The notes beneath the pieces were generated by a model. The model was not told where the DNA came from and ran no database searches. It was given only the letters and a program-made list of their open reading frames with translations. DNA of 64,000 bases from positions 98,394,001 to 98,458,000 of the forward strand of contig OZ360227.1 of NCBI GenBank assembly GCA_977017645.1. The letters are read 5' to 3'. How positions within the stretch are numbered: the first letter of the stretch is position 1; each line of letters opens with the position of its first letter. Positions 1 to 50,030 of this stretch are shown here, in pieces. Position numbers and translations under genes: made by a program. This stretch comes from Torpedo marmorata (taxonomy: Eukaryota).

Positions 1-2433
1 AGGCATTTGAACAAGCAACACAGTTTGCAAATGCTCTTGAGTGTGCAGAAATTCCATTGAAGGAAAAAGAGTTTTCAACACCAATAAAACAATTTCAAGT
101 GGACATAAAAGAATCTCAAAATCAATACAAGTTGAAGAAAAATATTGACATACTTTCTGATCAGAAGGCTGAAAGTTTGATAAGTTCATGGAACTCACTT
201 GCAAGGAAAACTGAATGCAGTCATTCAATGACTGACCACTCTAGCACAACAGAGAAATATGTACCTAGTTTTGCTGAAAAAGAAGTAATAACAAGAGAGT
301 ACACACAAAAGGTTATTCCTTCTCCATTACCCAAGAAAAGCATCTCAGTCCCTGTCTGTACACCTTTGAATGCTAATTTGCCTGGAAGCATCTTCATAAA
401 ACAGATGTCTGGATTTGAATATGGAACTGTTGACCACACCAAATCAGAATACAGAGAAAATGAAGCAATAAATGTCATTAAAATAAATGAAAAAGTGGTG
501 CAATATGAAGAGACAATTAAAGATGATACGCAGACACAGTTGCCTTCTACTTTATCAGATAAAAAAGAAACTTCATGTGTTATCAGTTCTTTGATTAAAG
601 ACACACCAGAAGATGTAAAATGCATTCCGTATAAAACTGTGGAGGTAAACTCTGAAACATTTGTGGATGCATCACCTGAAAGATATATTGGAAAACAAAA
701 TGATTTATTAACTCAGAAAGCAGTTGCTCATGAAATATCTGATCAGTCTCCATCAGAGATGATTGAAATGAGCAAAATCAATCAGAAAGAAACCCTGTAT
801 GAAGAAGAGATTACAGATTCTATTCCTGTACTGAGGAATTCTCCTTTGACAGCAAAGAGAAGAAAAGTATCAGCTTTTTTCAGACCAGTGATAAAACAAC
901 TTTCATTGGAAATAAAACAGTCTCCAAAGGAATCTGAAGTTTCTGAAGAAGATAAGCCAGCATCTGAAAGAGGTTATGGAAATTTTATGGAAAAAGACTG
1001 TGCAACAGCAAGATCTGAAGATAACCATGAAATCCAAATGATTGAACAATCCAAGTTAGCAGAAAAACAAATAGATGTTTTCAGTGTGCCTGAAGTCAGT
1101 CAAAATGAACAGTGTAAAGGCACAGTTAAAAATATCACTTTAATTTTGGGACCTTCTGCATCAGAAAACAAAGAAAGCTTCCCAGCTGTCAGTTCACTCC
1201 TGAAAGAAAGAGCAGCTGAAATGAAAGAACCTCCATATAAAGGTGATAAGGTACCACCTGATCAATTTGCTGGTGGGTTTGTTTGTATAATGAGAGAACT
1301 TGCAACAGAAAAATCTGAAGACTTCCTTGAAACAACCAATGTTTGCACACCAGTAGAGGTGATTTCTAATACTTACCAGAAAGAAACACAATATGAAGAC
1401 CAGATTAAAAGCACAATCCAAACAATAAAACAATCTTCACTTGATAGAAAAGATGCACCAACCACTTTAAGTACATCTGGACCTATGGAAGACGATGAGG
1501 CAACCCATGTGCAGCAATGTGGAATTTTGGTTCAAGCACAAAAGAGCTTTTTGCCAGGGAAACTTGATGAAAATCATAAAATGTACTTTCAATCCATTAA
1601 AGCAGGAAAAGAAACTGAGAAGATTTATGAAGATGAAATCAGACAAAAAGAAAGTGAATCTGAAGTAAAAGTTTTGAATTCCACATGGATGGCAAAGATT
1701 TCCCCTTTATCAGATGAAAAAGAAACTTCAATTTACACAAGTTCATTGGAAAAACAATTGTCAGTGGACACAAGTGATACTCTTTGCAACTTTAAATTTA
1801 AGGAAGATCCTTTGAAAGGTTTTGAAAGTTTTACCAGTACTCACAAAGAAGCTCCAACCGAGAACCTGGAGGATGACAAAATAATATCTGTTCATTCAGC
1901 ATTCAGTGAGAGAGCAGTGATTAACATATCTGAAATTGATCAGAAGGAGGGTGAATGGGAAGTTAAATGTCCTTCTCAAACTGTGAGACATATACAAACA
2001 AGGAGGCCTTCTTCCTTGAAAGAAAAAGAACAGGCTTTAGATTTATTCAGTTCATTAATGAAAGAAGCACCAGCAGAAGAGCATCATTATAAATGTAAAA
2101 CTCTGAAAGAATCTTCAAAACCAGAGACTCCTTCCAATAAATTCAACAACCATTGTCCACCAGAATTTCTTCACCACATTTCAAATCCTAAAATTAAGCA
2201 AGGAGCTACCTGTGTGCTTGAATATCAATTTTACGGGTACCCACTGCCCACTGTAACTTGGTACAAGGATGAGCATCCAATTCCACAAAATAGGGGTTAT
2301 GATATTTACTCCACAGAAAGAAAAACCTTATTGAGTATTAGCAACACATGCAAAGAACATGAAGGAGTTTATGCATGTGTAATATTCAACGAATATGGTT
2401 CTGCAAAAACATCTTGCGTCCTTAAAATGCAAG
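1..2433 (+). CDS. ttn: Titin novex-3 upstream exon (5' end outside window): long Glu/Lys/Ser-rich unique region plus one Ig domain
   Basis: Frame of ORF 57..2510 is open from the window start; Ig PPEFLHHIS...VTWYKD...EGVYACVIFNEYG resembles a human novex-3 Ig; donor CAAG|gtaaaa at 2434. Confidence 0.88.
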
Positions 2434-2535
2434 GTAAAATTCAGTATACTTTAGTTTTTAATTATTTTCTTAAATTATATTGCAATAACATAGTTGAAAA
2501 TCATTATTGATTACGTTTTTTTTTTCATTTTCCAG

Positions 2536-5500
2536 ACCCCGAACTGTTTGAAGAATCTTTGAAAACATTTAATATATGTGTGACAGAAACACTCGAGAAC
2601 TATACTGAAAAGGATGATCAGGACTATCAGGTTGAAAAGGAAGTTGAATCTTATTTTTCTCCAGTTCCAGTAATAAAATCCACCCTGCAAATACCAAAAT
2701 TTGCAGTACCCCAACCACATCCAATCAATTTATCTGCTCTTTCATCTCCCGTTGAAATTAAAATAACTGCTCCAACTCCAATACCAATGCAAGATGAAGA
2801 AGGGAGAGAGTTATTTCATACAGATGAGGTTGATTTCACAGATTTATCTCTAGAACCTTCCTCTCAATCTACAAAACATAAATTTAAATTTTCTTTTGAT
2901 GAGATTTGTGAACCTCCACAAGTTTTAAAAGAGTTAGATAAGATTTATTGTACATTAGGAGAAACAGTAATGTTTGAATGTCTAATTTCTGGTGAGCCAA
3001 AACCTGTTGTTACATGGATTCAAAATGACAGAGTTTTAACTTGTGATATGAGCAAGTACCAATTTGAAGAGAGTGGAGGAACGTATCGATTGTATATTAT
3101 TGGGGTTTCAGAATCTGATATAGGAAACTATAAATGCATTGCTAAAAATAAAGATGGGGAAGCACAGAGTATATCTAACCTCATAATAGAACCTGTAGTG
3201 CACAGTTTCATTTACCATTTGAAAGATATTGAGTCATCTGGTGAAGAAACAGAAACATCTATGAGCTCTTTTTTACATAATCTAAATAAAATGGGCCATG
3301 GTGAAAATATTGAGCAGCAATGTCAGAAAGAAAACAGGAATACTTCTCTTTCATTTGGTGTGAAAGAAAATCCAATTCATGTTATTTCTGAGGTTGGTAC
3401 TTTTGTTGCTGCAGATAAATTTTCAAGTGACATTTCATCTTTAAAAGAAGAGAGCAGTGATATTGCATTAGACTCATTGAGTTCTTTTGATAATGAATTT
3501 TTAAGTAACAATTCATTTTTAAAAGAGAAAAATAATAAAATAGTCACAGAATCAGGGACATTTGCTGAATTTCCAAATAAACATCCATCTTTAAAGGTTG
3601 TTAATAATACAATGATCAAAGACACAGATGAGACAGGGCAAAATTTGCCAGAAATAATAGAAGAAACATATTCTATCAGCCGATGTTTACGCTGTCTTGA
3701 GAAAAATCAGAAGTTTCCTGAAGTTCAGAAGATGGATGAAGCAACAGAATTAAAAGATAACAAGTCTGTATTTTCAGGAGAAATATATGAAGATGGTTTG
3801 TTTTCAGAAAGCAGAATTACACAAATTGTTGAAAGTGATAAAGGTGAAACAGAAAAAAATATGTCAGAAGAGGAGTTAAGTAACTCAGTATTTCAAAAAA
3901 ACAATTGTAATATTAGTGTGAATTCAGTGGAAGTAATTTCCAAGGATGAGGCAAGTGGAAATGTTTCTGTTGCACAATATCTCCATACTGCAAGCCAGGA
4001 GGAAGCACGAGTTCAAGTTCAGGAAAATAATGAAGTATTTCAACATGATGAATCTGGAATAACTTCAATGGAAGTTGAAGAAGTAACATTTTCTGCTGTT
4101 TATGACTACTATAATCAGAATGAAGAGTGGACACGGTCCCTTTCCCCTGAATCTGAAATGTCAATTGAAATTAGTAGTACAGTAAGTGATGAAGTAGCAG
4201 AAAATGAAAGATTTTATATACCACCCTTGGCTTCTGAAAATTTTAGATCTGCTGCATCTGCAGAGTCATTTCATACCCCACCTCAATCACCTGGCTATGT
4301 GACTCCTGAAGAAAGATTGCCTTCACTTAATGCTGTAAGTAGATCTCCTCCTGGTACTTTACTAGAGAGATTTTACACACCACTTGAGTATTTTAGATCA
4401 CCAGTAGATGAGGGAATTGAAACAACATCTATTGAATGCTCAAGTCTAACTACTGAAGAGCCAAGATCAGAGGTATTTTCTACTCCTCCACAGGAAGCTG
4501 AAGCAAAAGGAAATGAAATGCCTCCTGCATTTATTAGATCCCTTGCTAGAAAAACGATTCTTGAGGGAGGCTCACTAACGTTTTTTGCAGAAGTAATTGG
4601 TTATCCAATTCCAGATGTTAAGTGGTATAGAAGAAAATCATTATTAGAGCCAAATCACAAAATTAGACTCGAAAGGGAAGGAAATTTGTGTATGTTAGTA
4701 GTTCATAACTTGCAAAAAGAAGATGCAGGAGAGTATATTTGCAATGCTGTCAACATTTTTGGAGAAGCTAAGAGTATTGCTCAGGTGAATGTTTTGGCAC
4801 AAGACACTAGGTTAGTTGCATTGCCACCACCTGTGACTCATCAGCATGTAATAGAGTTTGATGTGCAGCAAGAACAAACATCAAGATCTCCTTCACCTCA
4901 AGAAATTATTTTGGAAGTTGAACTTGATGAACATGAAGTGAAGGAATTTGAAAAACAGATAAAAATTATTACAATTCCTGAATTCACTCCTGACAATAAA
5001 AATATGATCATCTCACTAGATGTTCTTCCTATGATAATTGCTGATGAACAGAATATGGACTTAACAGCAAGAGAAAATGAAGATGTTAAAATTGAGTTAA
5101 AAGTCACTGAAATGCCCCCACGGTTTATTAGCCACATTTTCAATCTTGAGATTCCAGAAAACAAGGATGCAGTGTTTGAATGCTCTGTGACAGGAATTCC
5201 TACTCCAGAAATAATGTGGTTCAAAGATGATTTATGTATAACAGTGGATGGCAGGAAATATATTAGAAAAGATGATTGTAATCATAGTCTTAAAATAACC
5301 AATGTCTGTCCTTCTGACAATGGCATATATAGTTGCAAAATAGTAAATAGTGTTGGAGAAACAACTTGTAAGGCTTATCTTGCAGTAACAAACTCAAACA
5401 TGGCACTAACAAAAGCAAGTGGAGGAGCTGAAGCTACTTTATCACTAGGTGGTGCTCAAGAATGTTCCCAGGAATTAGATGTTGTTGGTGATTCTTTGCT

Positions 5501-6020
5501 AGGTGATAATCAGTGTTTAGAATTTGAGGTTGAGCTTGAATTTGAGCAAGGTAGAGATGATTCTCAGAAATCAGTGAAACTTGTTGCTGTAACAGAGAAA
5601 GGAAATAAGGAAAAAGATGAGAAATGTGTGAATATCAATTTTGATGTATTTGCTGAATCTGCCAAAGATGAGACTATTCAGTTTAGAGCAGAGGCTTCTG
5701 AAACATGTTCATTTGACTTTCAAGTGACAGAAATTTCACCCAGGTTTGTAATTTATCTTCTTGACTGCAATGCAATCATAGGGAATACAGCATCTTTTCA
5801 ATGTGTTGTCACTGGTACTCCAAAACCTGGTGTAATTTGGTATTGGAATGATAGAATACTTGAAGGTGCCAACTATATCACTGGGGAAAAAGAATCTGGG
5901 GAACATTATTTAAACATTGTAAATGTTACGGAAAGTGATGCTGGAGTCTACAAGTGCAAAGCTTTCAATAAAGCTGGGAATGCTGTCACAGCTGCTGTTT
6001 TGAAAGTATTTTGTGCATAA
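2536..6020 (+). CDS. ttn: Titin novex-3 terminal exon (4 Ig domains plus unique sequence, ends in stop)
   Basis: Acceptor ttttccag|AC in frame with the upstream exon; novex-3 motifs PVEIKITAPTP, RSPSPQEIILEVELDE..VKEFEKQIKI, PEFTPD; TAA at 6018-6020 with no donor after the last Ig. Confidence 0.92.
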
Positions 6021-8340: not shown

Positions 8341-9355
8341 GTTAAAACAAATAACGGAAACTCACTCTCTACCGGAAACATTTTCGAATGCAATAATAAC
8401 AGTTATATCAAAAAAAGACAGAGACTTGTTGAAAACAGAATCATATAGACCAATTTCATTGTTAAATGTGGATTATAAGATAATGGCGAAAATATTGGCA
8501 AATAGACTTGCTAAATATTTACCAGATTTAATTCATGAGGATCAAGCAGGTTTTATTAAGAATAGATATTCAAAAGATAATATAGCTAGGTTAATTAGTT
8601 TAATTAATGTGGCTCAAAAGAAAGAGGAATTGGCATTAGTATTAGCATTAGATGCTGAAAAGGCTTTTGACAGATTAGAGTGGAATTATTTATTTAAAGT
8701 ATTGGAAAAATTTGGTTTTGGCACTATATTTATTAATTGGATTAAAACTATATACGAAGAGCCTTCTGCCAGAGTGGTTACAAATGGACAAATTTCTTCA
8801 AAATTTTTGTTGACTTTGGTCGACACGACAAGGATGTCCTTTGTCACCTGCATTATTTATTTTAGCAATTGAACCTTTGGCAGAATTAATTAGACAAGAT
8901 ATCAAGATTACGGGTATTAAAGTTGGAAGGAAAGAGCATAAAATTAGTTTATTTGCAGATGATGTACTGATATATATGACAAAACCTACTACTTCTTTAA
9001 TACAATTGGATGTTTTATTGAAAGAATATGGGGAGATATCTGGTTATAAAATTAATTCTGATAAAAGTGAAATTATGGCATTAACACAAGGGGATTATAG
9101 TAAATGTAAAGAAATTACACAATTTAAATGGTCAAACGAAGGAATTAAATATTTAGGTATAAAGATAGACACTAAATTAGTTAACTTATATAAATTAAAT
9201 TATTTACCATTATTTGTGAAAATTAAAAAAGATTTAGAAAGTTGGAAAGATTTACCTATAACTTTAATAGGAAGGGTAAATTGTATTAAAATGAATGTCT
9301 TTCCAAGAATTCAATATCTTTTTCAATCAATTCCTTTTGAAATTCCTCAGAAATA
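8340..9355 (+). mobile_element. L1/Tx1-clade LINE ORF2 reverse transcriptase fragment, frameshifted
   Basis: SYRPISLLNVDYKI, LDAEKAFDRLEW, SLFADD, IKYLGI; frameshift near 8815. Confidence 0.93.
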
Positions 9356-9607
9356 TGACATTCTTCTGATGCTATTTTAATTAGTTTTATTTTTATTTTA
9401 TTAGTGCTATTTATTTGAACTGGTCTAATACATAAAATATTTTACAGAGGAATACCTTAAAACATGTTAAATGCTCATCTCCAATACCATTAACAGCTAC
9501 AAAATAATTTAATCTTAGAAATTTGTCATCTGATAACTTTGAGCAATGTGAAAGCATCCTCTCCAAATACTATACTGTGTGATGCAGTAAATTTTAAAAA
9601 ATTAAAA

Positions 9608-13504: not shown

Positions 13505-14292
13505 AACTGTTGGCTGTTTTCTTTTCCTGTCACTTAGAAATCTGAAATGAATTTAAACATTTCATTGCTGCCCAGTTATGAGAAGTTAACATCATAAATC
13601 AGAGATTTATAGCTGCATTTGGTTGTTTTGATGAAACTGAAATTATAGTATTGATCTTTCTATAACCAAGGTAAATATAGCAATACATTGTCTCTTGATG
13701 TGACTTAATCAAATTTGGTTGATTGAAAAATATGTATATCAGTGATGGAATAAAGCTTAAATTAGAAATGACTCTTAAGTCTTTTGAAAATTTGTAGCAT
13801 GCAGCACATTTCTGTGTAAGAATAATGCTTTCTGCCATGATTGCTCTGGAGTGTGATTCTAGATTTGCAAGATGCCCATCGCTACTAACAAACACCTTTG
13901 TTCCTACAGTTCCTTTTTTATTCACTTTGAGTAATTCATGGAAATATAGACATTTATTCACAAATAATTACTCAGAAGGCACACATTTGAATCTATGAAT
14001 TTAAATCAAACTTAATTTGAAATGTTTTTTAAACTACTTGGGTGTTATTAAAATTGGCTTTAGACAAAATAAAATGAAATTGTCTGATCTAATTCTGTGC
14101 ACAATCACAAACCTACAACATACCTTGATTGAAGATAAATATTTAAAGAAGACAGAGAAAATTAACCTTTTGAAGCAAAACGAGCACAAAATGACATATT
14201 AATAATTCTGGTGATTTATTTTTGTTTCCAGTATTTAGAAACACTCACAATCAATATATTTTCTAAATTTAGCCATCTTATTTCTTATACGG

Positions 14293-17200
14293 AAATTTCT
14301 AGCTCTGTAATCATCACTGCTGAAGATGAGAGGGAAGATTTCTACACAAGTCAACTTCATGTGCCTGACAAAACATTTGAACTCAGGGTGGAAACTCCAG
14401 CTCCTTCGAACATTTTGGACCTTAAAACTGATGCTAAGCCTTTAAAATCTGTGCCAGTATTCATCAAACATATTTCTAGTATGGAGGTAGTTGAGGAAGA
14501 TGTAGCTAAATTCTCTGTCACTATTAGTGGATTCCCAGAACCCTCTATTCAGTGGTTTTACAATGGTAAAAAAATGACTCTTTCATCAAATTACAAGCTT
14601 ATTTATGATCAGGATGAATATAGTCCAATTATAACTTACACAAAATTTACAGATGAAGGAGAATATACGCATACAGCTACTAATGTACTTGGAGAGACTT
14701 CATGTAGTGCATATCTGAAAATCAAATCAAAGGAAGGTCTGGGAGGGTTTAGGAAATCAGCTGCAAAGCCTCCAGTAGCAAAACTGCCAGAAAAAAAAAA
14801 GATAAATAAATAGCCACTGTCAAAGAGTGCTGTGATGGTACAACAGGCAGAAACTATGCATGTATCTAGGGGTGAGGCACCACAGTTTTAGAAATAATTT
14901 AAATCTTTGCAATGTCTAAAAGGGATGCTTGCTAAATTTGAGTTTGTGGTGCCAGGAGAACCAATGCCAGAGATACTTTGATATAAGGGAAAATACCAGA
15001 TTTGTCAGTGTGTACACTGCCACTTGAATTACAGTTCCAGTGGCTCTGGTTCCTTAACCATTCTTGATGCACAGAAAGAGGATAGTGGTGTGTATTTCTG
15101 CAAAGCATTTAATGCCTTTGGAGAAACAACTTGCACTGCAGAGCTAATTGTGATTAGTGATCCTTTTGCTGTTGAGCATTCAAAACAAGAAAGAGTCCAG
15201 AAGCAACATAGTAAAATGTGCAAAACGTCTGTTGGTAATCATACTGTTGAGTCACGTTTATTCACAGTAAAATTATCTGGTGATACTCATGCAGAATTAC
15301 AGAGTAGAGATCAATTGTTCTATGCAATAGCTTCCGAAGATAAACATGCTGCCCACTGTGAAGAAGCATGAGGTAACAATCTCTGCTGCAATTTCAGGAA
15401 AGAAACTGAAGACAATGCAATCTCAAACTACACCAGAGAGTCTTGGCTTCATTGAGCAACACTATGAACCAATTAAAAGCCCAACAGTATTCAGATTACC
15501 ATGCATGGAAGCACAGCCAGACCAAAGCCTTTGTTTACCCACAATTGAGTAAAAAACTGCAAATCCAAAGGAACCCATCTTTGGTATCAAAGATTTGCCT
15601 TCTGCAACTCAACCAGTGACAGGGAAAGCAGGTATGCCAGAGAAAAATGTCTAATTCTAGCTCAAAAGCTGCATATGTTAATGTTGTAGAAATGTCAAAT
15701 GCAGAGCCAAGGTACCCTATGGATGGCTACAAACTTGAAGGACTTCAAGAGCTCCTAAAGAAGCTTTGTTCTTGTTTGAAGTTCCTGAATTGCAGAAATG
15801 TGAAATGCAAAAAGAAAACAAATTAGAGCTTTATGCAACTGTATCAACAGAGAAGAAGAAAATAAGGGATGAAATTACAAAAAGCATACAGCCACTAGAT
15901 GCTGGATCAAAGTTATTAAAATGGGAATCAAAGTTATTAAAAGAATGACCAAAACCATTTTTGGCATATGTTACTGAAAGCCAGAAGTCGACCTCCAAAG
16001 AGTCTACCTTTAAAGTACAAAAAGCTGAATCACAACAAGCTTTATTAATGAAAGATAAACTTGAGAAAACTGTTTTAAATGCAGAAGAGAAACAACCACT
16101 TAGAAGTGAATATACCAAAATATTAATCGGGCTAGATTGTGCAATCTCATTGACATTGAAAAAAGACGAAAAGGGACCTTTACATTTACAGATTTTCAAG
16201 GAACAAGATCCTCTACCCAAAGAAAGAACATACGGTATACTTTTGAAGTACCCAGAGAAGAGCAAGCAAATCTGAGAAAGAGCCCAACACCGAATTTCAT
16301 GACTTGTTCATGACAATAAATTCTGATTCTGAACATCTCTACATTCAGTACTATCAGAAGACCAGCACCCGGTACCTTATGAATGCACAACTCATTTATC
16401 TGATGTAAAGGACAGCATTAAAATTAAAACAACAAAGGAACGTTTATCTAATTTATATTCTCATAATGTAGAAACTATGTGCATTTTTTATAAAGAAGGT
16501 ATACTACCCAATGAAAAACTATCTCCTCATATTGCAACAAGCAAACTTGAGAAGGCATACAGCAATGCTGTGGTTGTAGAAGAAAAAACAGAACTGTCAA
16601 CCAAACAAATGAAACCACTTGAAATGAAAATTTGCATTCTGAAATCAAAATTGATGCTCCACCAATAAAGTATCTGCCACCTGTAACTTTACCAATACAA
16701 AAATCTAAAGAAAATGTGTTTACAATTGAAGAAAAAGAACAGCATGCTCTAATAACTAAGTCTGGTGACAACACAGTTGTGGAAGATGGTTCTGTTGCCA
16801 TTTTCAAAGCTATAAGTGCAGCAACCTGTGAAAATAAATGAGAGCCAGAATTACTTTCAGCTTCTGTGCAGGTTAAAGAAAAAACTTGTGTCTATAGAAA
16901 ATGCTGATATGCTAGAGGGTGCAGAAGATTTTGCAGTAAGGATGCAAGAGGGACAGCCGGTAAGATTTCCACTGTTGCTTCAAGAAAAACAGATTATTGA
17001 AGAGGAACATTCTTCAGATTTGAAGAGATCAATTCTGAAGTTGGAGAACCAACCAATTCAAACACTACAATCCCATGTAGCACAAGAAAATGGTGCACTC
17101 TATAAAGAAATTGCATTTAAGATTGAAATTCCCAAAGCAATCACTTTAAATCCAGGTACACAGTTTAAGGAAGCATTTAAATCTGCTTTAGCAAGTGAGC

Positions 17201-17927
17201 ATCATGCGATTTCTTCCATTTCATTAGGCTGCATAGAAGCGATAAAAATTAAGGAATTAAAAGTTCAAAAGGAACCAAAGTATACTTTATATACACACCA
17301 AATTACCAATGCTAATCCTCCTATAGATATAACTCTGACCTTTGAAGGAGAATACCCTCCGATAGCTGACTTACAAAAGGAACTGATGACAGTGTTTCAT
17401 TCTGTTATTCATGAACTGCAGCAAACTTTCATAGCTGAGCAGCTAGGTACAATTACAAAGCCATCTGGCAGGAAAGAATAATTGTATATCAGTGTTACTC
17501 CTGCTGAAAAGATGACTGCCAACATTGATGAAAATACTTGGGATACAGAGGAGTATGGGAAGAAAACAGCAGAAGTAACAATGGAGAAAAAAATATTTAC
17601 TCAGGTTTCTAAAGTGATAATTGCAAGTGAAACACAAATGAAAGGAACTAAAAATAATCCAATAATTATTAAAGGGCTTACTGATACCACTGTAAATGAT
17701 ATTTAGCATAGTCATAACAAAATTGAAAAGTGTAAATTGGTATATAAATAAGAAGAAAATTATTTCAAAAAATGAGTTCAAATGTTTTCAAGATTTTGAC
17801 ACATACCAGTACTCACTTATAATCAACAAAGTATAGAAAGAGGATCATCAAGGAGAATATATCTGTGAGACACTGAATGAAGCAGGAAAAGCAACTACAT
17901 CTGCAAAACTCACAGTTGTAAAAAGAG
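14293..17927 (+). pseudogene. ttn: Disrupted titin N2B exon (I24, I25, N2B unique sequence, I26 homologues): pseudo-exon
   Basis: EISSS.., PVFIKHIS..IQWFYNG..CSAYLKI, FAVRMQEGQPVRFPLLLQEKQ, EDHQGEYICETLNEAGKATTSAKLTVVKR match N2B; acceptor reads cgg|AA; in-frame stops at 14811, 14889, 14895, 14979, 15946, 17479, 17834; several frameshifts. Confidence 0.9.
16288..16333 (+). mobile_element. About 46-nt retroelement 3' tail inserted in the N2B exon
   Basis: ccgaatttcatgac...atgacaataaattctgattctga matches the intronic tail at 21808-21847; aaca on both sides. Confidence 0.75.
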
Positions 17928-18832
17928 GTTGGATTATGGGGATAAAATCTTTATTAATATGAACTTTAGAATCTAATCTATTCAACTAATAAAATAGTTA
18001 ACTTATAATTTTAGTTTATGCTAATAAATTCACATGACTGAATCTTTCCTCTTTGTTCCTCCTTTTCCCTTCCTTCTTTCCCATCATATCTTAATGGTAA
18101 AGGAGTAATTGTGTTACCCATTACATTTCAATATATAATGCAGTCAAAGCCTGATGAGTTTATTTCACAAAATATGCATTACAAATTTTAAATATTGATG
18201 GCATTGCCTTGAAAAAATGTGAATTTGATTCATATTGATGTGATCTTCATATGCTTTCACTACCAGTAATAAAAAGCAACTTAAAGTTAACTCTGTTTAC
18301 AAAACTTACCGTGAATGTATTATTTAGTCTTGCTCCCTTTTATTTTGATATTAACTAATGATTAACATCACCCATCTTTTTAATTTTTTACTAACACAAT
18401 ATTGTTTTCATCCCCATATCCACTTTTGAGGAGATGCTAGATATTTATTACCACCATCACCATGTCATAACGAGAAGACAATGGAATATTGTTTTTCCCT
18501 CCTAATATCAAATTTTGTCATCTACTTTGTTCCAGGGGAAAACATCTCATTTTGTATCAATTACTTGCATGCTGCTATGCACTTCACACATGTCAATAAA
18601 TGTTGAATTTCATTAATTGAAATTTTATCATTTACAACATTGAGCACAGCCACTGGTCAGCTAACATCATTTAACCATCATTTCTTCTCCACAGGCATTC
18701 CATGGATTGTTAGTTTCTGCCACTTCTTTTCCTTCATTTTTTGAGTTTCAGGGGGCCACATCTAAACTAAGCTGAAAGAATTAGGGTGTATTGTTACAAT
18801 CTTCTTACTTTTTCTTTAATTTTAATCTACAG

Positions 18833-19111
18833 TGCCTCCAACTTTTAAAAGAAAGATTGAATCACAGGAGGTGATCGTTGGACAGGCTACACAGTTTGAA
18901 TATGAGGTTGAACCTCTTCCTGATGTGAGATTCCAGTGGTTCCGAGCCAGAGCTGAACTTCGTGATAGTGAAAAATACAACATTGTGAACAAGAAATATA
19001 TTTCTATCTTGAAACTTTTGAAGCCCCAGCTAATTGACTGTGGAGAATATACTTGCAGAGCATCAAACCAAATTGGCAGTATAAGTAGCACAGCTAAGTT
19101 GATTGTTCTTG
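18833..19111 (+). CDS. ttn: Titin I27-like Ig exon (279 nt)
   Basis: PPTFKRKIE..VRFQWF..DCGEYTCRASN; ctacag|TG and G|gtaagt. Confidence 0.93.
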
Positions 19112-21969: not shown

Positions 21970-23355
21970 AGTAGCACTTACATCAACAGTGATGAAGTGT
22001 TTTGAAAGGCTGGTGTTGAAGCATATCAGCTCCTGATTGAGAGGCGACATGGATACGTTCCAGTTCATCTATCGCAGCAACAGGTCTACAGCAGATGCCA
22101 TCTCACTGGCTCTACACAAAGCCCTGGAACATATGGACAGTAAAGATGCATTCATCAGGATGCTCTTCAGCAATGACAGTTCGGCATTTAATGCCATCAT
22201 CCCCTCAAAACTGATCAGCAAATTCCAAGACCTGGGACTCAACACCCCAGTGTGTAATTGGATTATAGATTTCCTCACCTCCAGACCACAATCAGTGACG
22301 ATTGGTAAGAACATCTCCTCCACAATCTCCATCAGTACTGGAGCACCACAGGGCTGCGTTCTTAGCCCCCTGCTCTGCTCACTTTACACCTACGACTGTG
22401 TGGCTCAGTATGACAATAAAACCATCTACAAATATGCCGACAATACCAAGGTAGTGGGTTGTATAAAGGAAGGTGATGAGTCAGCATACAGGAGGGAGAT
22501 TGAAAACTTGGCTGAATGGTGCACCAACAACAACCTTGCACTCAACGTCACCAAAGCTAAGGAGCTGATTGTTAACTTCAGGAAAGGAAAGCCAGAGGTA
22601 TACAATCCAGTGATCATTGGGGGATCAAAGGTGGAGTGGGTGAACAAATTTAAGTTCTTGGGAGTCGCTATCTCGGAGGATCTTTCCTGGAGCCAACACA
22701 CTAATGGCACTGTGAAGAAAGCACGTCAGCGCGTCTACTTCCTCAGGAGTTTGCAGAGGTTTGGTATGACACCAGAAACCTGGCAAATTTCTACAGATTT
22801 GTGGTGGAAAGTGTGCTGACCGGCTGCATCACAGTCTGGAATGGGGACACCAATACCCCTGAGCGTTAAGCCCTTCAAAAGGTAGTGGACACAGCCCAGA
22901 ACATCACAGGCAAAACCCTCCCCACTATCGAGAACATCTTCAGGGAATGCTGCCGTTGGAGAGCAGCAGCAATCATCAAGGATCCACACCACCCAGCACA
23001 TGCTCTTTTCTCGCTGCTGCCATCAGGAAAGAGGTATCGGTGCCACAAGACTCACACCACCAGGTTTAGGAACAGCTGCTACCCCTCCACTATCAGACTC
23101 CTCAACAACAAACTCAATCAGGGACTCATTTAAGGACTCTTGTGCACTTTATTGTTTTTTTTATTTTTTCTGTATTGCACAGTCAATTTGTTTACATTCA
23201 TTATCTGTTTACAGTACTTTATTTGTTTACATGTATGCGCTGTGTACAGTTTTTTTTGCACTACCAATAAGTGATAATTCTGCCTTGCCCGCAGGAAAAA
23301 GAATCTCAGGGTTGTATGTGATGTCATGTATGTACTCTGACAATACATCTGAAAT
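21970..23355 (+). mobile_element. 5'-truncated Rex1/Babar-clade LINE (RT and 3' UTR)
   Basis: [38 protein letters not shown] (for YADD), FKFLGV. Confidence 0.92.
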
Positions 23356-33323: not shown

Positions 33324-33889
33324 GTGTGGAATTTTTAAAGATTCTCTCGAGTTTTAAATGATTTGTTTAATTAAGTTTCTTTCTGGGGAAAAAAATCTTG
33401 TTTTGGAGGCTCCTTTTCTCATAGCTTTCTTTATTAATTATTACATATCTACCGGTATATTGTCTTTCCAATCAGCAAAATCTTCCTTCAACATTCATGC
33501 TAATTTCTTTGTCTTATTTTTATTTGACCAATTAAACATTTATCTTTTTTCTATCTTTTATTAGATTTAATATTTGTACCATGATTTTTGGCCACATAAT
33601 TCTTGTTTGAGATTTTATAGTTTTCTTCATTTTGCATATATTGTAGGAAATGGTCAAACTAAGGTGCTTGTCCCATCTGCGCCTTTTTTAATTCAATTCA
33701 GCATGAACAAAGAAGTACTGTTCACAGAACATTCAAATTAAGTTAGTAGAATTATCACCGTTTCATGACAGGCAGTCCTTGAATTGCCATGGCTCAGTAG
33801 TAAGGCCACAATTTGGATTTTCTGTTTTGCCCAATTTGTTCTGCAAGGGTGCCACCCAGTATTATGCTGCATCCCGAATGGTCCTTGTA

Positions 33890-34215
33890 GCATAATCACA
33901 GAAATACTGGAGGAACTCAGTAGGTCTCGTAGTGTCCATAGGAGGTAAAGATATATTACCGACTTTTCAGGCCTGAGCCCTTCTTCAAGGTATGAGAAAA
34001 AGCAGGCAGTGCCTGAATAAAGGAAATGGAGGGGAGTGGAGTACAGACCAACAGATAAAAGGTGATAATTGGATATGGAGAAGAGGCCAGCAGAAAGGAA
34101 AGGTGAGAATTGATAGGGGGAGGGGTGGGGTTGGCTCTGTGAATGCAAAGCTGGGGCAAAGAAGATAGAGGGAAAAGGGGAGGGAGAGAGATAGAGCTAC
34201 AGGAAAGGAGACCTG
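33890..34215 (-). mobile_element. Penelope-like element terminal fragment
   Basis: Minus strand cttgaagaagggctcaggcctgaaaagtc...gacctactgagttcctccagta after a pyrimidine-rich stretch; related to 10300, 19180 and 60636. Confidence 0.6.
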
Positions 34216-37200
34216 GAATTAGATAAGATAGGAGAAAAAAATACCAGAAGATTTTATATATAAATGGGAATCTAAATTAATAACGGGTGAGAGAGAAACC
34301 CCTTTGTTGAAACATTTGATTAATATTTGGAATAAGATAAACATTGATGATGAAATTTCTTTATATATTTATTTAATTCTTGAAAAAAACTTTTGTGGTA
34401 ATAATATTGGTAATGTTTGAAACAAATATTATACTCTAGGAAATACATTCATTTTAACACAATTAACTCTACCCAACAAAGTTATTGGTAACGTCATCCA
34501 TTTATTGAGATCTTCTCCAATTTTCTTCAATAAAGGTAAATAGTTCAGTCTATATAAATAATTTAAATTATTATCTACACGTATACCTAAATATTTTATA
34601 CCATTCGTTGGCCATTTAAATTGAGTTTCTCTTTGACACTGAGTATAATCTCCTGTAGTGAGGGGCATAATTTCACTCTTATCCCAATTTATTTTATAAC
34701 CCGATACTTTCCCATAATCTTCCAGTCTTAAATATAATTTACCTAGTGAACTTATTGGTTCTGTCAAATAGATTAAAACATCTTCTCGATTAACTTTGAA
34801 TCCTTTAATCTCTGGATCTGACCGGACCAATTCAGCAAGTGGTTCTATTTCTAAAATAAATAAGGATGGTCATAGTGGACATCCTTGTCTACTCGATCTT
34901 GTTAATGGAAATGGTGCAGAGACCTGTCCATTTGTTACAACTTTAGCCTTGGGCTCATTATACAGAGCTTTGATCCAATTTACAAATATCTGTCCCATCC
35001 CGTATTTTTCCAACACCTTAAATAAAAAGTCCCATTCCAATCTATCAAACGCCTTTTCCACGTCCAAAGCCACTGTTACACTTAAGTCTCCCATTTTCTG
35101 TGCTAAATGTATTACATCTAGTTACATTACATTATCTGCGGATTGTCTCTTTTTTACAAATCCTGTTTGATCCATATTTATCAATTATGGTAAATATTTC
35201 ATCAATCAATTTGATAAAATTTTTGAAATTATCTTATAATCTGCATTTAATAACGAAATAGGCCTATATGATGACGCTTTTAAAGGGTCTCTGATCTTTT
35301 TTGGTATTACTGTTAATATTGCTGTAGAAAAGGAATCCAGGAGAGTGTATGTCTCCGCCGTTTGTTGCACTACCTCCATAAATGGAGGAATCAACAGATC
35401 TTTAATTTCTTTATAAAATTCAGGTGGAAAACCATCCTCTCCCAGAGATTTATTACTTTGTAATGAGCTCAATGCTTCACACACCTCTTTTGATGTAAAA
35501 GGGGCATCCAACCCTGTTTGTTCTTCCAGACTTAACCTTGGTAAACTTATTTGTGATAAAAAGTTTTCTATCTTATTATCATCTCTTTGCGACTTGGATT
35601 GGTATAACTTAGGATAAAATTGCTTAAAAGCTACATTAATTTCTTGAGGTTTATAAGTAATCACATTTGCGTCTGTTTTTATTGCATTCATTATTCTTGA
35701 AGTTTACTCTGCTTTCAATTGCCAAGCAAGAACTTTATGAGCTTTTTCGCCTAACTCATAATATCTCTGTTTAGTTTGCATTATTGTTTTTTCTGGTCTA
35801 TATGTTTGTAATGTTTTATATTGAAGTTTCTTACTAATAAGCCGCCTACATTTCTCAGAGATTCGTTTTTGTAAATCCTTCTCTAAGTGTGTTATCTCTT
35901 TCTCCAATTTTTCTAACTCCTTTATATATTCCTTCTTAATTTTTGAAGTATAACTTATAATTTGTCCTCTTAGGTAAGCTTTCATCGCATCCCATAGAAT
36001 AAATTTATTATTAACCGAATTAGAATTTGTCTCAAAGAAAAATTGAATTTGCCTTCTAATAAAATCACAGAAGTCTGGTCTTTTTAACAACTGAATTAAA
36101 TCTCCATCTATAAACTGATTCTTCTTTATCCAGCATTATAATTGTCATTAACAAGGGTGAATGATCTGATAATATTCTATCTTTATAATCCACCTGTTTA
36201 ATCCTATCTTGAAGATGTGCTGATATTAAAAATAAATCTATCCTCGAATAAGAATCATGCCTGTTTGAGTAAAATTAATAATCTCTTTCTCTTGGATACA
36301 TTCTTCTCCATGCATCTATTAAATTCAAATCTTTCATTAACATCAAGGTAGCATTCGCTGCTTTTGTCCTTGTTATAGCTCTAGTTGATCTATCTAAGGC
36401 TGGGTCCAAACAGAAATTAAAATCCCCACCTATTAATATATTATTATGTGCTTCTGCCAAATTAAGAAAAGTTTCTTGTATAAATTTTTCATCATCTATA
36501 TTCAGTGCATATATATTCATAAGGGTCCATAATTCAGGAAAAAAATGACAGTGTACTACCACGTATCTCCCTGCAGGATCAGTTACTATATTCTGTATCT
36601 TAATCGGAAGAGTTTTCTTTATTAAGATTGCCACCCTTCTTGCTTTTGAGTTAAATGAAGAGGCTGTAACATATCCTACACAATCTCTCTTTAATTTCTG
36701 ATGCTCTGTCTCAGTTAAATGGGTCTCTTGTAAAAAAGCTATATCTGCTTTCATTTTCTTAATATTTGTCAATATTCTTTTTCTCTTCACCGGTCCATTT
36801 AGCCCATTAACATTAAAACTTTAAAAAATGTACTGTATTACTCATTGATAAATTAGATTTATTTCATAATATTTCTCCCTCCCCTATCTCCTCGCATCTC
36901 CCCGAGAATCTTATATTTATAATCTACCGTGCTACAGTGCGTCCTCCTCAGCCATCCAGGTAAAAAGAAAAGAAAAAAATATATATAGAGTAATAAAAGA
37001 CCCCCCTATTAATGTTGCTTAAATAATACGCAATACTACCCCCCTCCATTTTACGGGTTGTGGCTTCTGCCACAATTACACACATGATTCCGTAGTAGTC
37101 AGTCCATATCCCCTCCAACCCACCAGATGTTTTTTTTAAAAAATATTTTATTTAAATTTTTAAATCACAAAATACATAAAATAATTTTGCATATATTTCA

Positions 37201-39368
37201 AAAATACATGTGATATACATTTTCTCCCCCCCTTCCCACCCTCCTCTCCCTAACCCCTATATCCCCACTACTCTAAAAATAAAATATAGTAAAAGAGAGA
37301 AAGAAAAAGGAAAGATAGAAAAATAGGATGAGGAGACAACAAACTTAATACTAATTTACCTTAGAGGTTATTTTCGCCAGTGGATCTGATATCTAGAGAA
37401 TTTAAATTGTTAAACCCATAATCCTCATATATGGGCCCCAAATTTCAAGAAAGAATGATATTTATTTCGCAAGTTATAAGTAATTTTTTCTAATGGTATA
37501 CATGAGCGTAACTCTGCATGCCATCGTTCTAAACTTAAATCCACATCTGACTTCCAAGTAATAGCTATACACTTTTTCGAAACTGCTAATACTATACGTA
37601 AAAATTCTACTTGGTACATATTTAATCTATTTCTAATACTAAATTTTTTAATATCTCTAAATAAAAATAACATAGGATCCATTGTAAATCCAACATTAAA
37701 AATTCTCTCTAAAAAATTCTTAACTTTCAACCAAAAATCTTGAATTTTTGAACATAACCATGTACAATGTACAAAAGAACCTATTTCACTTTTACATCTA
37801 AAACACATATCTGATAACGCTGGATTAAATTTCTTCAATTTTTTAGGTGTTAAATATAATTGATGGAAAAAGTTATATTGTACTAATCTATATCTAACAT
37901 TAATAACTTTAGTCATACTTAATTTACATAAATCTTTCCAATGATTTTCATCTATATTAACATTTAAGTCTAATTCCCATTTTAATCTAGATTTATGTAA
38001 CCCTACTTTAGACATCTTTCTCTGAAACAATTTATACAACCCCCCAGATGTTATCCAAATATAAGTCCATCTTTAACTTCGTAATTAATAATGGATTTTT
38101 AGATTTCTGCCTGTTGGTTGTCTGGTAGAATGTCCATGTATTCTTCTGCACTCAGATGATTTCTAAAGAATTTATTTTGCCCATTTGCTACAAATCCTTC
38201 AGAGTAGCAGGATGTCGTAGATAAAATCTATAGCCTTTTTTCCACAGGTCATTCTTCACCTTGTTAAATTCTTTTCTTCTTTTCAACAACTCGTAACTTA
38301 TGTCCGGATAAAAGAAGACCTTGTTTCCATCAGATTTCAGTGGTTCTCTCCCTGCTTTAACTCTTCGTACTGCTGCTGTTAATATTGTCTCTCTATCTTG
38401 ATAACGAAAACGTTTTATCAATATCGATCTTGGCTTTTGATCTTGTGGTAGACGTGGTCTCAAAGCTCTATGTGCTCTTTCAATTTCAATAGGTTTATCC
38501 ATTTCTATTTCCAGAACTTCCGGGATCCATTCTTGAAAAAACTTTATCGGATCTTCACCTTCTATACCTTATTTAAGGGCAACAATTTTAATATTGTTTC
38601 TTCTACTGAAGTTTTCTAATAAGTCTATTTTATCCCAGAGCTGTTTTCTTTCACTAACCCAGGCATCTGTATTATTTTCCATACGATCCACTCTTCCTTG
38701 TACTCCTTCCATTTCGTTCTCCAAATGTTTAACTTTATTATCAACTTTGTCCAATTTGTTTTGCACTTTTGTTACCATGTCTGTTCTCATCTCTCTTAAT
38801 TCTTTAATTATAGATATATATATTTTTCATCACTTTTCTGCTTAGGTTTCCTACCTTTATCTTTGGAAACCTTAGTAATTGTAGGCATTGTTAATTCTTC
38901 CTCATACTCCTCTTCTTCGTTGCTGGCCTGAGGTGTAGTGTCCTGGTCGCTGACATTTTGAATTTTTTGTGTTCTGCGCATGCGTGGCTCCTCACGCATG
39001 CTCAGTTCCTCTTCCTCTTCTTCATCGTCTTCTGGTTCCAAATACACCTGTGATGGCGCTGTGGAGCATTTCACAGCCCCCAGCAGGGGTCTGCTTTGAC
39101 CGGGAGGGAGTTCTCACCTCAGCTCCCGGATCCATCGAGACGGTAGGCTTTCTTCCTTGTTGCTGTTGTTGTTCTCGTTGTGTTACCGACGGGCCAGCGA
39201 CCTTCCTTGATTTTTTTGGTGACATTCTAAAATCGTTCTAGGGTAGTTCTTAAACTTTTTTTTTTTATGTTTGGTTAAAAATACTTTACTTATATAGCAC
39301 TTTTTAAAACTATTTCCCAGGAGGGTCAGATTTTTACTTCCTGACTCTACTGCATCACGTGATGTTCC
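34216..39368 (-). mobile_element. L1-clade LINE with 5' UTR, ORF1, endonuclease and RT; degraded, 3' part missing
   Basis: ORF1 IEIERAHR, LENFSRRNNI; EN IAFLQETH, IGGDFN; RT SYRPISLLNADYK, LDVEKAFDRLEW, RQGCP. Confidence 0.93.
37132..38036 (-). mobile_element. Nested 5'-truncated L1 (zf-RVT C-terminus and 3' UTR) inside the larger L1
   Basis: CFRC...FVHC.WLC, IPLEKITY; 16-bp TSD with one mismatch at 37116-37131 and 38037-38052. Confidence 0.88.
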
Positions 39369-48259: not shown

Positions 48260-50030
48260 AAGACATAGGAGAGAAAAAGCCATTTGGCCCATCAAGTCTG
48301 CCCTGCCATTCCATCATGGCTGATTTACTATAGTTTTCAACCCCATTCTCCTGCTTTCTCCCCATAACCCTTGATTCCCTACTTGATCAAGAATGTATCT
48401 ACCTCCACCTTAAATATCCCCAGATTTGACTTCCACAGCCGTCCATGGCAACTAATTCCACAAATTCACCACCCTCTGGGTAAAGAAATTCCTCCTCATC
48501 TCTGTTCAAATGTATTCTGAGGCTGTGCCCTCTGGTCCCAGGCTTCCCTACTATAGGAAACATCCTCTCCACATCCACTCTATCCAGGCCTTTCAGTATT
48601 CGATAAGTTTCAATGAGAACCTCCCCCCTTCATTCTTCTAAACTTCAGCGAGTACAATCCCAGAGCCCACAAACGCTCTTCATATGAAAACCCTTTCACA
48701 CTGGGGATCATCCTTGTAAACTTCCTCTGGATCCTCTCCAATGCCAAAACATGCTTCCTCAGATATGATGCCCAAAACTGCTCACAATATTGCAAGTGTG
48801 GTCTGACCAATGCCTTATAAAGCCTCAACATCACACTTTTATATTTTATCCTTTTCAAAATGAATGCGAGCATCCCATTTGTCTTCCCTACCACTGACTC
48901 TACATGCAAGTTGACATTTATAGAGTTTTGCATAATGACTCCTGAGTCCCTCTGCACCTCTGATTTCTGAACTCGTTGCCTGTTTAGAAAATAGTCTACG
49001 CCTTTAGTTCTTCCACCAAAGTGCATGATCATACACTTCTCTATACTGTACTCCTTCTGTCATTTCCTTTCCCAATCTCCTAACCTGTCTAAGACAATAT
49101 GCAGACTCAGTGCTTCCTCAACACTACTTGCCCCTCCTGCGATCTTTGTATTGTCTGCAAACTTGGCCACAAAGATATATAATCCATCATCCAAATCATT
49201 GACATATAATGTGAAAGGTAGCGGCCTCAGCACTGGGCCCTGTGGAACACCACTGGTCACCGGCAGCCAGCCAGAAAAGGCCCTTTTTATTCCCCACTCC
49301 ATGCCTCCTGCTGGTCAGCCAATCTTCTATCCATGCTAATTCCTTTCCCGTAATATCATGGGCTCTCATCTTTCTTAGCAGCCTCATGTGCGGCACCTTG
49401 TCAAAGACCTTTTGAAAATCCAGGTAAACCACATCCACTAATTCTCCTTTATCTGTCCTTCCTGTTATTTCCTCAAAGAATTCCAACAGGTTTGATAGGC
49501 AAGATTTCCCCTTCAGGAAACCTATTTTACCGTGTACCTCCAATTACACCGAAACCTCTTCCTTAATAATAAATTCTAACATCTTACCAACCACTGAAGT
49601 CAGGCTAGCTGGCCTGTAATTTCCTGTCTTTTGCCTCCCTCTTTTCTTAGAGTGGAGTGACCTTTGCAATTTTCCAATCCTCTGGAACCATTCCAGAATC
49701 TAGCGATTCCCAAAAGGTCACTGCCAATACCTCCACAATTTATTCAGCTACATCTTTTAAAACCCTGTGGTGTAGTTCATCTGGTCCAGGTGATTTGTCC
49801 ACCTTCAGACCTTTCAACTTTCCCAGCACCTTCTTGGTAATACCAACTGCACACATTTCTGCCCCATGACACTCTCGAACTTCTGGCACACTGCTGGTTA
49901 TTAAATACAAAATACTTGTTATGTTCACCCGCCATTTCTTTGTCCCTTCACTACCCCAGCAGTCCAATGTCAACACTCGGCTCTCTTTTGCTCTTTATGT
50001 AACTGAAGACATTTTTCACATTCTATGTTG
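48260..50030 (-). mobile_element. CR1 LINE (RT and 3' end), antisense, nested in a sense CR1
   Basis: GFLKGKSCLSNLLEFFE, VYLDFQKVFDKVPH, SGVPQG, KFADNTK, LYKALVRPHL. Confidence 0.9.

Follow-up and report, generated by a model that had tools for sequence, protein, structure and literature searches.

The N2B exon is very probably dead and skipped in the otherwise intact titin gene of an electric ray

The N2B exon in the single titin gene of an electric ray is, with high probability, dead and decaying without selection, and the heart of this animal likely splices I23 directly to I27, making an N2A-type titin that lacks the N2B spring. N2B binds FHL proteins and alphaB-crystallin and carries the PKA/PKG sites by which stiffness is tuned. 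The sequence analyzed, hereafter the window, is a stretch of 64,000 nt, and all coordinates are positions in it unless marked as contig positions. For profile searches, 550 kb of flanking genome was added to give a 614-kb titin locus. Searches of the whole genome (6.2 Gb) rank the best-scoring candidates, in an assembly that may have gaps. The exon, its parts and the neighboring exons are as follows.

Positions 3 to 6017, + strand: novex-3 coding exons, open and serving as a control, with a 102-nt intron at 2434-2535.
Positions 14293 to 17927, + strand: titin N2B exon, very probably dead (equivalent of mammalian exon 49), aligned end to end with skate P0002 (68.5% identity) and shark P0003 (62% identity).
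Positions 14454 to 14723, + strand: I24 Ig domain (human I21 in the UniProt count), Pfam I-set E value of 3e-20, stop-free with a damaged core.
Positions 14880 to 15152, + strand: I25 Ig domain, with three internal stops.
Positions 15153 to 17650, + strand: N2B unique (spring) sequence, with stops at 15550, 15946, 16839 and 17479 and seven frameshifts.
Positions 17651 to 17920, + strand: I26 Ig domain, with a frameshift near 17695 and a stop at 17834.
Positions 18833 to 19111, + strand: I27 exon, intact, with an AG acceptor; it continues the frame of the I23 exon, which lies upstream of the window.

The identity of the exon follows from its layout, from structural matches and from homologues, all of which agree with the preliminary description in placing I24, I25, the unique sequence and I26 in the N2B position. 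The order Ig-Ig-unique-Ig occurs in one exon that lies between I23/novex-3 and I27 of the titin gene. The best single-domain PDB matches of I24 are 8P35 and 8OVU, both human titin I21 (E values of ~1e-29), and its alignment to human I21 scores 105 bits, versus at most ~33 bits per domain for the other two titin chains aligned. With the first 172 codons of the exon as the query, we retrieved three long open homologues as reference frames, namely, P0001 (1,203 residues), P0002 from the skate Rhinoraja longicauda and P0003 from the shark Mustelus asterias. Open N2B frames of 1,170 to 1,350 residues are present in skates, a shark and bony fishes, and the exon aligns with such frames from end to end; I24 to I26 of the window are 67 to 80% identical to their skate and shark counterparts. 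Among 50% cluster representatives, the additional matches were remote N2B frames and a model from the elephant shark (P0138), and none came from another ray. In a 13-row tree, the exon joins the two skate-type rows, with the shark apart, at a support of 100/100. On the basis of these alignments, we identify 14293-17927 as the titin N2B exon, orthologous to the known N2B. An acetylcholinesterase exon of the host genome is identical at 470 of 479 positions to the 1EEA/1ACJ-type chain of the PDB, entries that we take to be from Torpedo californica, and with that assumed reference species this match and the N2B tree place the host among the torpedinid electric rays.

Three-frame translation of 14100-18100 yields recognizable Ig domains with stops in every frame. 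Lesions were called by frameshift-aware alignment to P0001-P0003, which are 62 to 69% identical to the exon. Nine stops, all substitutions, lie in the ancestral frame: those at 14811, 14889, 14895, 14979, 15946, 17479 and 17834, which the preliminary description had listed and which are all found at those places, and two more at 15550 and 16839. The "several" frameshifts claimed there amount to eight, near 15366, 15650, 15752, 16235, 16332, 16630, 16887 and 17695; the skate and shark references place them to within ~50 nt, and P0001 puts the 15650 event at 15700. The principal sites of damage and the adjoining splice sites are the following.

Positions 14291 to 14292, + strand: former splice acceptor with GG in place of AG, its position deduced from protein homologues.
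Positions 14670 to 14672, + strand: conserved strand-F Cys of I24 replaced by His, by alignment to 8P35; this is the position of human C3575S.
Positions 14811 to 14981, + strand: four in-frame substitution stops (14811 TAG, 14889 TAG, 14895 TAA and 14979 TGA, the last replacing the I25 Trp).
Positions 16286 to 16331, + strand: inserted repeat tail (46 nt, from the 3' end of a repeat with very high copy number), absent in organism B (see below).
Positions 17928 to 17929, + strand: splice donor GT, retained.

Both core substitutions had been noticed before, the I25 Trp turned to TGA and the I24 Cys turned to His; the human counterpart of the latter, C3575S in titin I21, is a reported cause of dilated cardiomyopathy (bioRxiv 10.1101/2023.06.02.543467). 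The position of the acceptor was deduced from two observations: the skate P0002 model departs from the open-frame homologues exactly at the 14291-14292 boundary, and homologues carry Thr/Ser-Glu/Ala codon pairs there. At this deduced position the canonical AG is missing, and the frame from acceptor to donor is not open, leaving only the first 172 codons readable up to the first stop, which is codon 173 and falls after I24. The repeat tail shows up as a skip of 46 in X2 and as a summed depth of ~3 million in X1, and five further copies of 40 to 47 nt with 95 to 100% identity are scattered in the 614-kb locus. Chance does not account for this pattern, since the 3.6-kb N2B exon has 17 lesions, whereas another exon of this gene, 17.2 kb long, has none.

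Three public sequencing runs from two studies cover the stretch as contigs and represent two organisms, A and B, which differ from the window by ~1.5% and ~5%, respectively. The organism A contig over 13800-15491 has no difference from the window at the acceptor or at the stops from 14811 to 14979, among the 22 of 25 differences listed, and its contig over 16549-17601 has no gaps relative to the window, so that the frameshifts near 16630 and 16887 are common to both. Organism B has indels of its own at 14332, 14378, 14485, 14567, 14600-14606, 14791, 14842 and 15187; as these break the frame where the window keeps the ancestral one, its N2B is also broken. Some of the damage is confined to the window, counter to a single shared origin: the stops at 15550 and 17479 and the replacement of Cys by His (the codon at 14670-14672 is Cys in skates, the shark and organisms A and B). 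The repeat tail is absent from organism B, and among the positions displayed for this organism, which take in a minority of the stops, no lesion common to all three sequences is seen.

Neither comparison reveals purifying selection. Between the window and organism A there are 67 differences, and of the 40 displayed, 32 lie in the exon, of which 31 were scorable; silent changes are not in excess among these, with 4 synonymous and 27 nonsynonymous against a neutral expectation of 25% synonymous (P = 0.15). Between the window and organism B, the N2B exon differs at 169 of 3,609 positions (4.7%) and introns at 31 of 671 (4.6%), i.e., the exon diverges at the intron level. The I27 exon differs at 3 of 184 positions (1.6%), a short control that misses the 0.05 level in comparison with N2B (P = 0.066). 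These substitution patterns indicate that the N2B exon is evolving without selection. With stops arising at 4.4% of neutral substitutions, nine stops correspond to a change of ~5.7% per site since the loss (95% range, 2.6 to 10.8%). As this exceeds half of the distance between the window and organism B (~2.3%), the loss of N2B is likely older than the split from organism B.

The remainder of the gene presents a different picture: it is intact, and N2B can be skipped in frame. The exon is symmetric (phase 1 to phase 1), its present length of 3,635 nt leaves a remainder of 2 on division by 3, and a direct I23-I27 junction is in frame and contains no stop. The A-band exon (5,720 codons), the kinase/M-band exon (1,961 codons) and the Ig domains and unique sequence of N2A are all open. 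Profile searches over 614 kb recovered 337 domains (196 Ig and 141 Fn3); a neighboring gene may account for a few of those upstream. Just seven of these hits bear stops, two of them being I25 and I26 of N2B; we rejected the other five as lesions, for these hits run into an intron and have an AG right at the boundary. The earlier statement that all 44 exons downstream are open holds: the 45 Ig hits that they contain (18838-63493) are all stop-free, and an in-phase AG immediately precedes 44 of the 45, the exception being the second domain of a two-domain exon. The parallel statement on novex-3 stands in part, in that both exons are open but do not form one frame; the stop at 2508, considered as a possible lesion, was discarded because it falls inside the GT-AG intron noted above. 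This check of gene integrity covered the Ig and Fn3 domains, N2A and the large exons fully and the small PEVK and Z-repeat exons in part; a rough count of PEVK gives at least 23 exons and 581 residues, a crude lower bound.

Upstream of the window, open stretches bearing Ig domains continue for 4.7 kb or more, and novex-3 therefore comprises several exons. A search for novex-3 homologues yielded proteins of birds and weak matches to unrelated sequences; no novex-3 of a cartilaginous fish was among them. For novex-1/-2, a proxy query found no Ig half in the 15.4 kb between the split-Ig halves (contig positions ~98,371,000-98,386,500, upstream of the window, L024-L026), with an I23-half control that gave 148 hits; we tentatively suggest that novex-1/-2 have been deleted or have decayed beyond recognition. 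From I27 to N2A (window position 18833 to contig position 98,482,631) there are 69 Ig domains, which by eye follow the whale-shark pattern with the addition of a three-Ig unit present three times near the end (contig positions ~98,466,800-98,481,600).

Several other explanations of the broken exon have to be weighed against a dead N2B in a single gene. The preliminary description had left room for a second ttn paralogue with an intact N2B, and more generally an intact N2B might reside in a second titin copy or an unassembled stretch, the copy in the window having decayed after duplication. The genome searches, which rank best candidates in a possibly incomplete assembly, allow some scope for such a copy, but I24, the skate N2B and I27 each match a single place in the genome. 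Among the best candidates, I24 and I27 have one strong place each, the one described here, followed by other Ig domains of at most 38% identity, and the whole skate N2B, in a stricter first pass, likewise has a single place. Further, there is no duplicate N2B in the 614 kb around the gene and no long second version among the listed contig pieces of the three runs, and cartilaginous fishes are reported to have one titin gene (PMC12241362). We hence regard a hidden copy as highly unlikely and the loss as unitary: no intact N2B was found elsewhere in the genome, within the limits set by assembly completeness and best-candidate scoring. That the lesions are assembly or sequencing errors has a negligible likelihood. 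The exon is A-rich, and the reads compared come from other individuals, with the best run ~1.5% different, but the nine stops are substitutions, the titin exon of 17.2 kb is open, organism A has two of the same frameshifts while organism B has its own, and an inserted repeat cannot arise by base-calling. The objection to assembly error raised in the preliminary description is strengthened by these data, as the lesions and neutral divergence in organisms A and B refute such an error.

Two further alternatives accept the lesions and give the remnant of the exon a role. In one, the heart keeps the first unique stretch and I24 by means of an upstream AG (14237) and a GT inside the exon (14737), with I25, the spring and I26 lost. 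The resulting mini-exon (14239-14736) has a length divisible by 3, contains no stop and agrees in phase with I27, and its donor may be real in rays, given that a skate gene model lacks the 30 residues starting at GT 14737. However, all eight differences from organism A in 14293-14736 are nonsynonymous, one organism A difference alters the base preceding GT 14737, organism B is frameshifted inside the mini-exon and the core Cys of I24 is His in the window. For a single gap at the observed lesion density, a lesion-free length of 518 nt has a probability of ~0.09, and the middle of the exon holds a longer gap of 592 nt. Such a partial rescue thus seems unlikely. In the other, the broken N2B would still enter some heart transcripts as a poison exon, lowering the amount of full-length titin or giving a short Z-disc-anchored protein that ends after I24. 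The intact donor GT and a first stop placed after I24, at codon 173, would fit this possibility, but the GG acceptor and the neutral evolution of the exon make it very improbable, as does a first stop that may not be shared with organism B.

The preferred reading, a dead N2B exon bypassed in the heart, can be set against what is known of N2B in other vertebrates. Mammalian TTN exon 49 encodes the N2B element (I24-I25-N2Bus-I26; PMC8553726), and the ray exon resembles it in position (novex-3, then N2B, then I27) and in being a single exon with three I-set domains and a long unique sequence; unlike it, the ray exon cannot encode the element, by virtue of its nine stops, eight frameshifts, GG acceptor and repeat insertion. 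In Callorhinchus milii, the elephant shark, the ventricular N2BA isoform includes N2B and the skeletal N2A isoform skips it (PMC12241362). The elephant shark and the ray share a single titin gene and the expansion of a 6-Ig super-repeat, but the ventricle of the former expresses N2B, which in the ray is very probably dead. They also differ in the number of middle Ig domains, 69 in the ray versus 51 (e27-77) for the elephant shark and 63 (w27-89) for the whale shark, and in Novex-I and Novex-II, which are reported in the elephant shark (PMC12241362) and of which neither was detected in the ray by the search described above. Mice with a knockout of exon 49 are viable and have small, stiff hearts whose diastolic function is impaired (Radke et al. 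2007, as reviewed in PMC8553726), and zebrafish N2B mutants have diseased hearts with an outcome worse than that in the mouse (PMC8553726). From these mutants it is clear that loss of N2B is not obviously free of cost. The zebrafish allele is said to be a stop codon, hence with no in-frame skip. The knockout mouse and the state proposed for the ray are alike in that the whole of N2B would be absent in frame from cardiac titin; the mouse loss is engineered, whereas that of the ray is natural and apparently fixed. In the N2B-knockout mouse, lowering RBM20 (activity halved) lengthens titin and rescues the animal (PMC5143357).

In light of these precedents, we propose that inclusion of the N2B exon ceased, for which disappearance of the acceptor AG may have been the first step, and that the skeletal I23-to-I27 skip became the sole productive route in the heart. 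Stops arising after this exclusion would cost nothing and be invisible to selection. Given the in-frame I23-I27 junction and the intact N2A, the heart would then likely rely on skeletal-type N2A titin. By analogy with the mouse rescue, the lost extensibility was probably offset in the heart by retaining additional middle-Ig and PEVK exons, for which the 69 middle Ig domains would provide the material for splice compensation, with a putative use in this organ. Electric rays lead a sluggish life on the bottom, and the demand on their hearts is modest. A bolder reading, which we consider possible while leaning somewhat against it, is that the torpedinid rays are the first known jawed vertebrates with hearts lacking all N2B. 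Under it, the skeletal route would have become fixed, the FHL/alphaB-crystallin/PKA/PKG hub and apparently also novex-1/-2 would have been lost, and compliance would come from the 69 middle Ig domains and more PEVK in the heart, as a natural RBM20-type rescue.

N2B itself and the loss of exons from working genes are already known, and the new part is a well-supported natural loss of the cardiac N2B. In common with other lineage-specific losses of alternative exons, an optional symmetric exon decays inside a working gene; in contrast to the usual pseudoexon, it is a major and normally obligatory cardiac element rather than a minor exon. We found no report of a natural loss of N2B in the literature searched, in which subscription journals are mostly outside coverage, and the relevant part of a comparative review (PMC11033294) lists rat and turtle as having cardiac titin that contains N2B, without naming an exception. 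N2B has been described as a part of every cardiac titin isoform and is used by the elephant-shark heart, and a wild lineage without it would constitute a natural long-term knockout. This raises the question of whether N2B is needed for a beating heart as such or just for high-pressure, hormonally tuned hearts, and the related questions of what takes over from the spring and by what means passive stiffness is controlled without the PKA/PKG sites. The ray might also bear on exon-skipping therapy for truncating variants of exon 49.

A few other sequence features of the region deserve mention. The intron flanks of N2B (14240-14292 and 17928-17990) translate to similar residues in the ray, skate and shark, which suggests that they are conserved splice-regulatory sequences still recognizable beside the dead exon. 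Within the exon, positions 14737-14830 correspond to a linker of ~30 residues between I24 and I25 that is found in rays and the shark and is lacking in bony fishes and the skate gene model; it may represent an intron within N2B whose removal is optional in cartilaginous fishes. Finally, the titin introns contain fragments of LINE-type retrotransposons, recognized by eye from reverse-transcriptase/endonuclease-like frames, at 8342-9377 and 22037-23130 and, on the minus strand, at 33741-38568 and 48613-49059.
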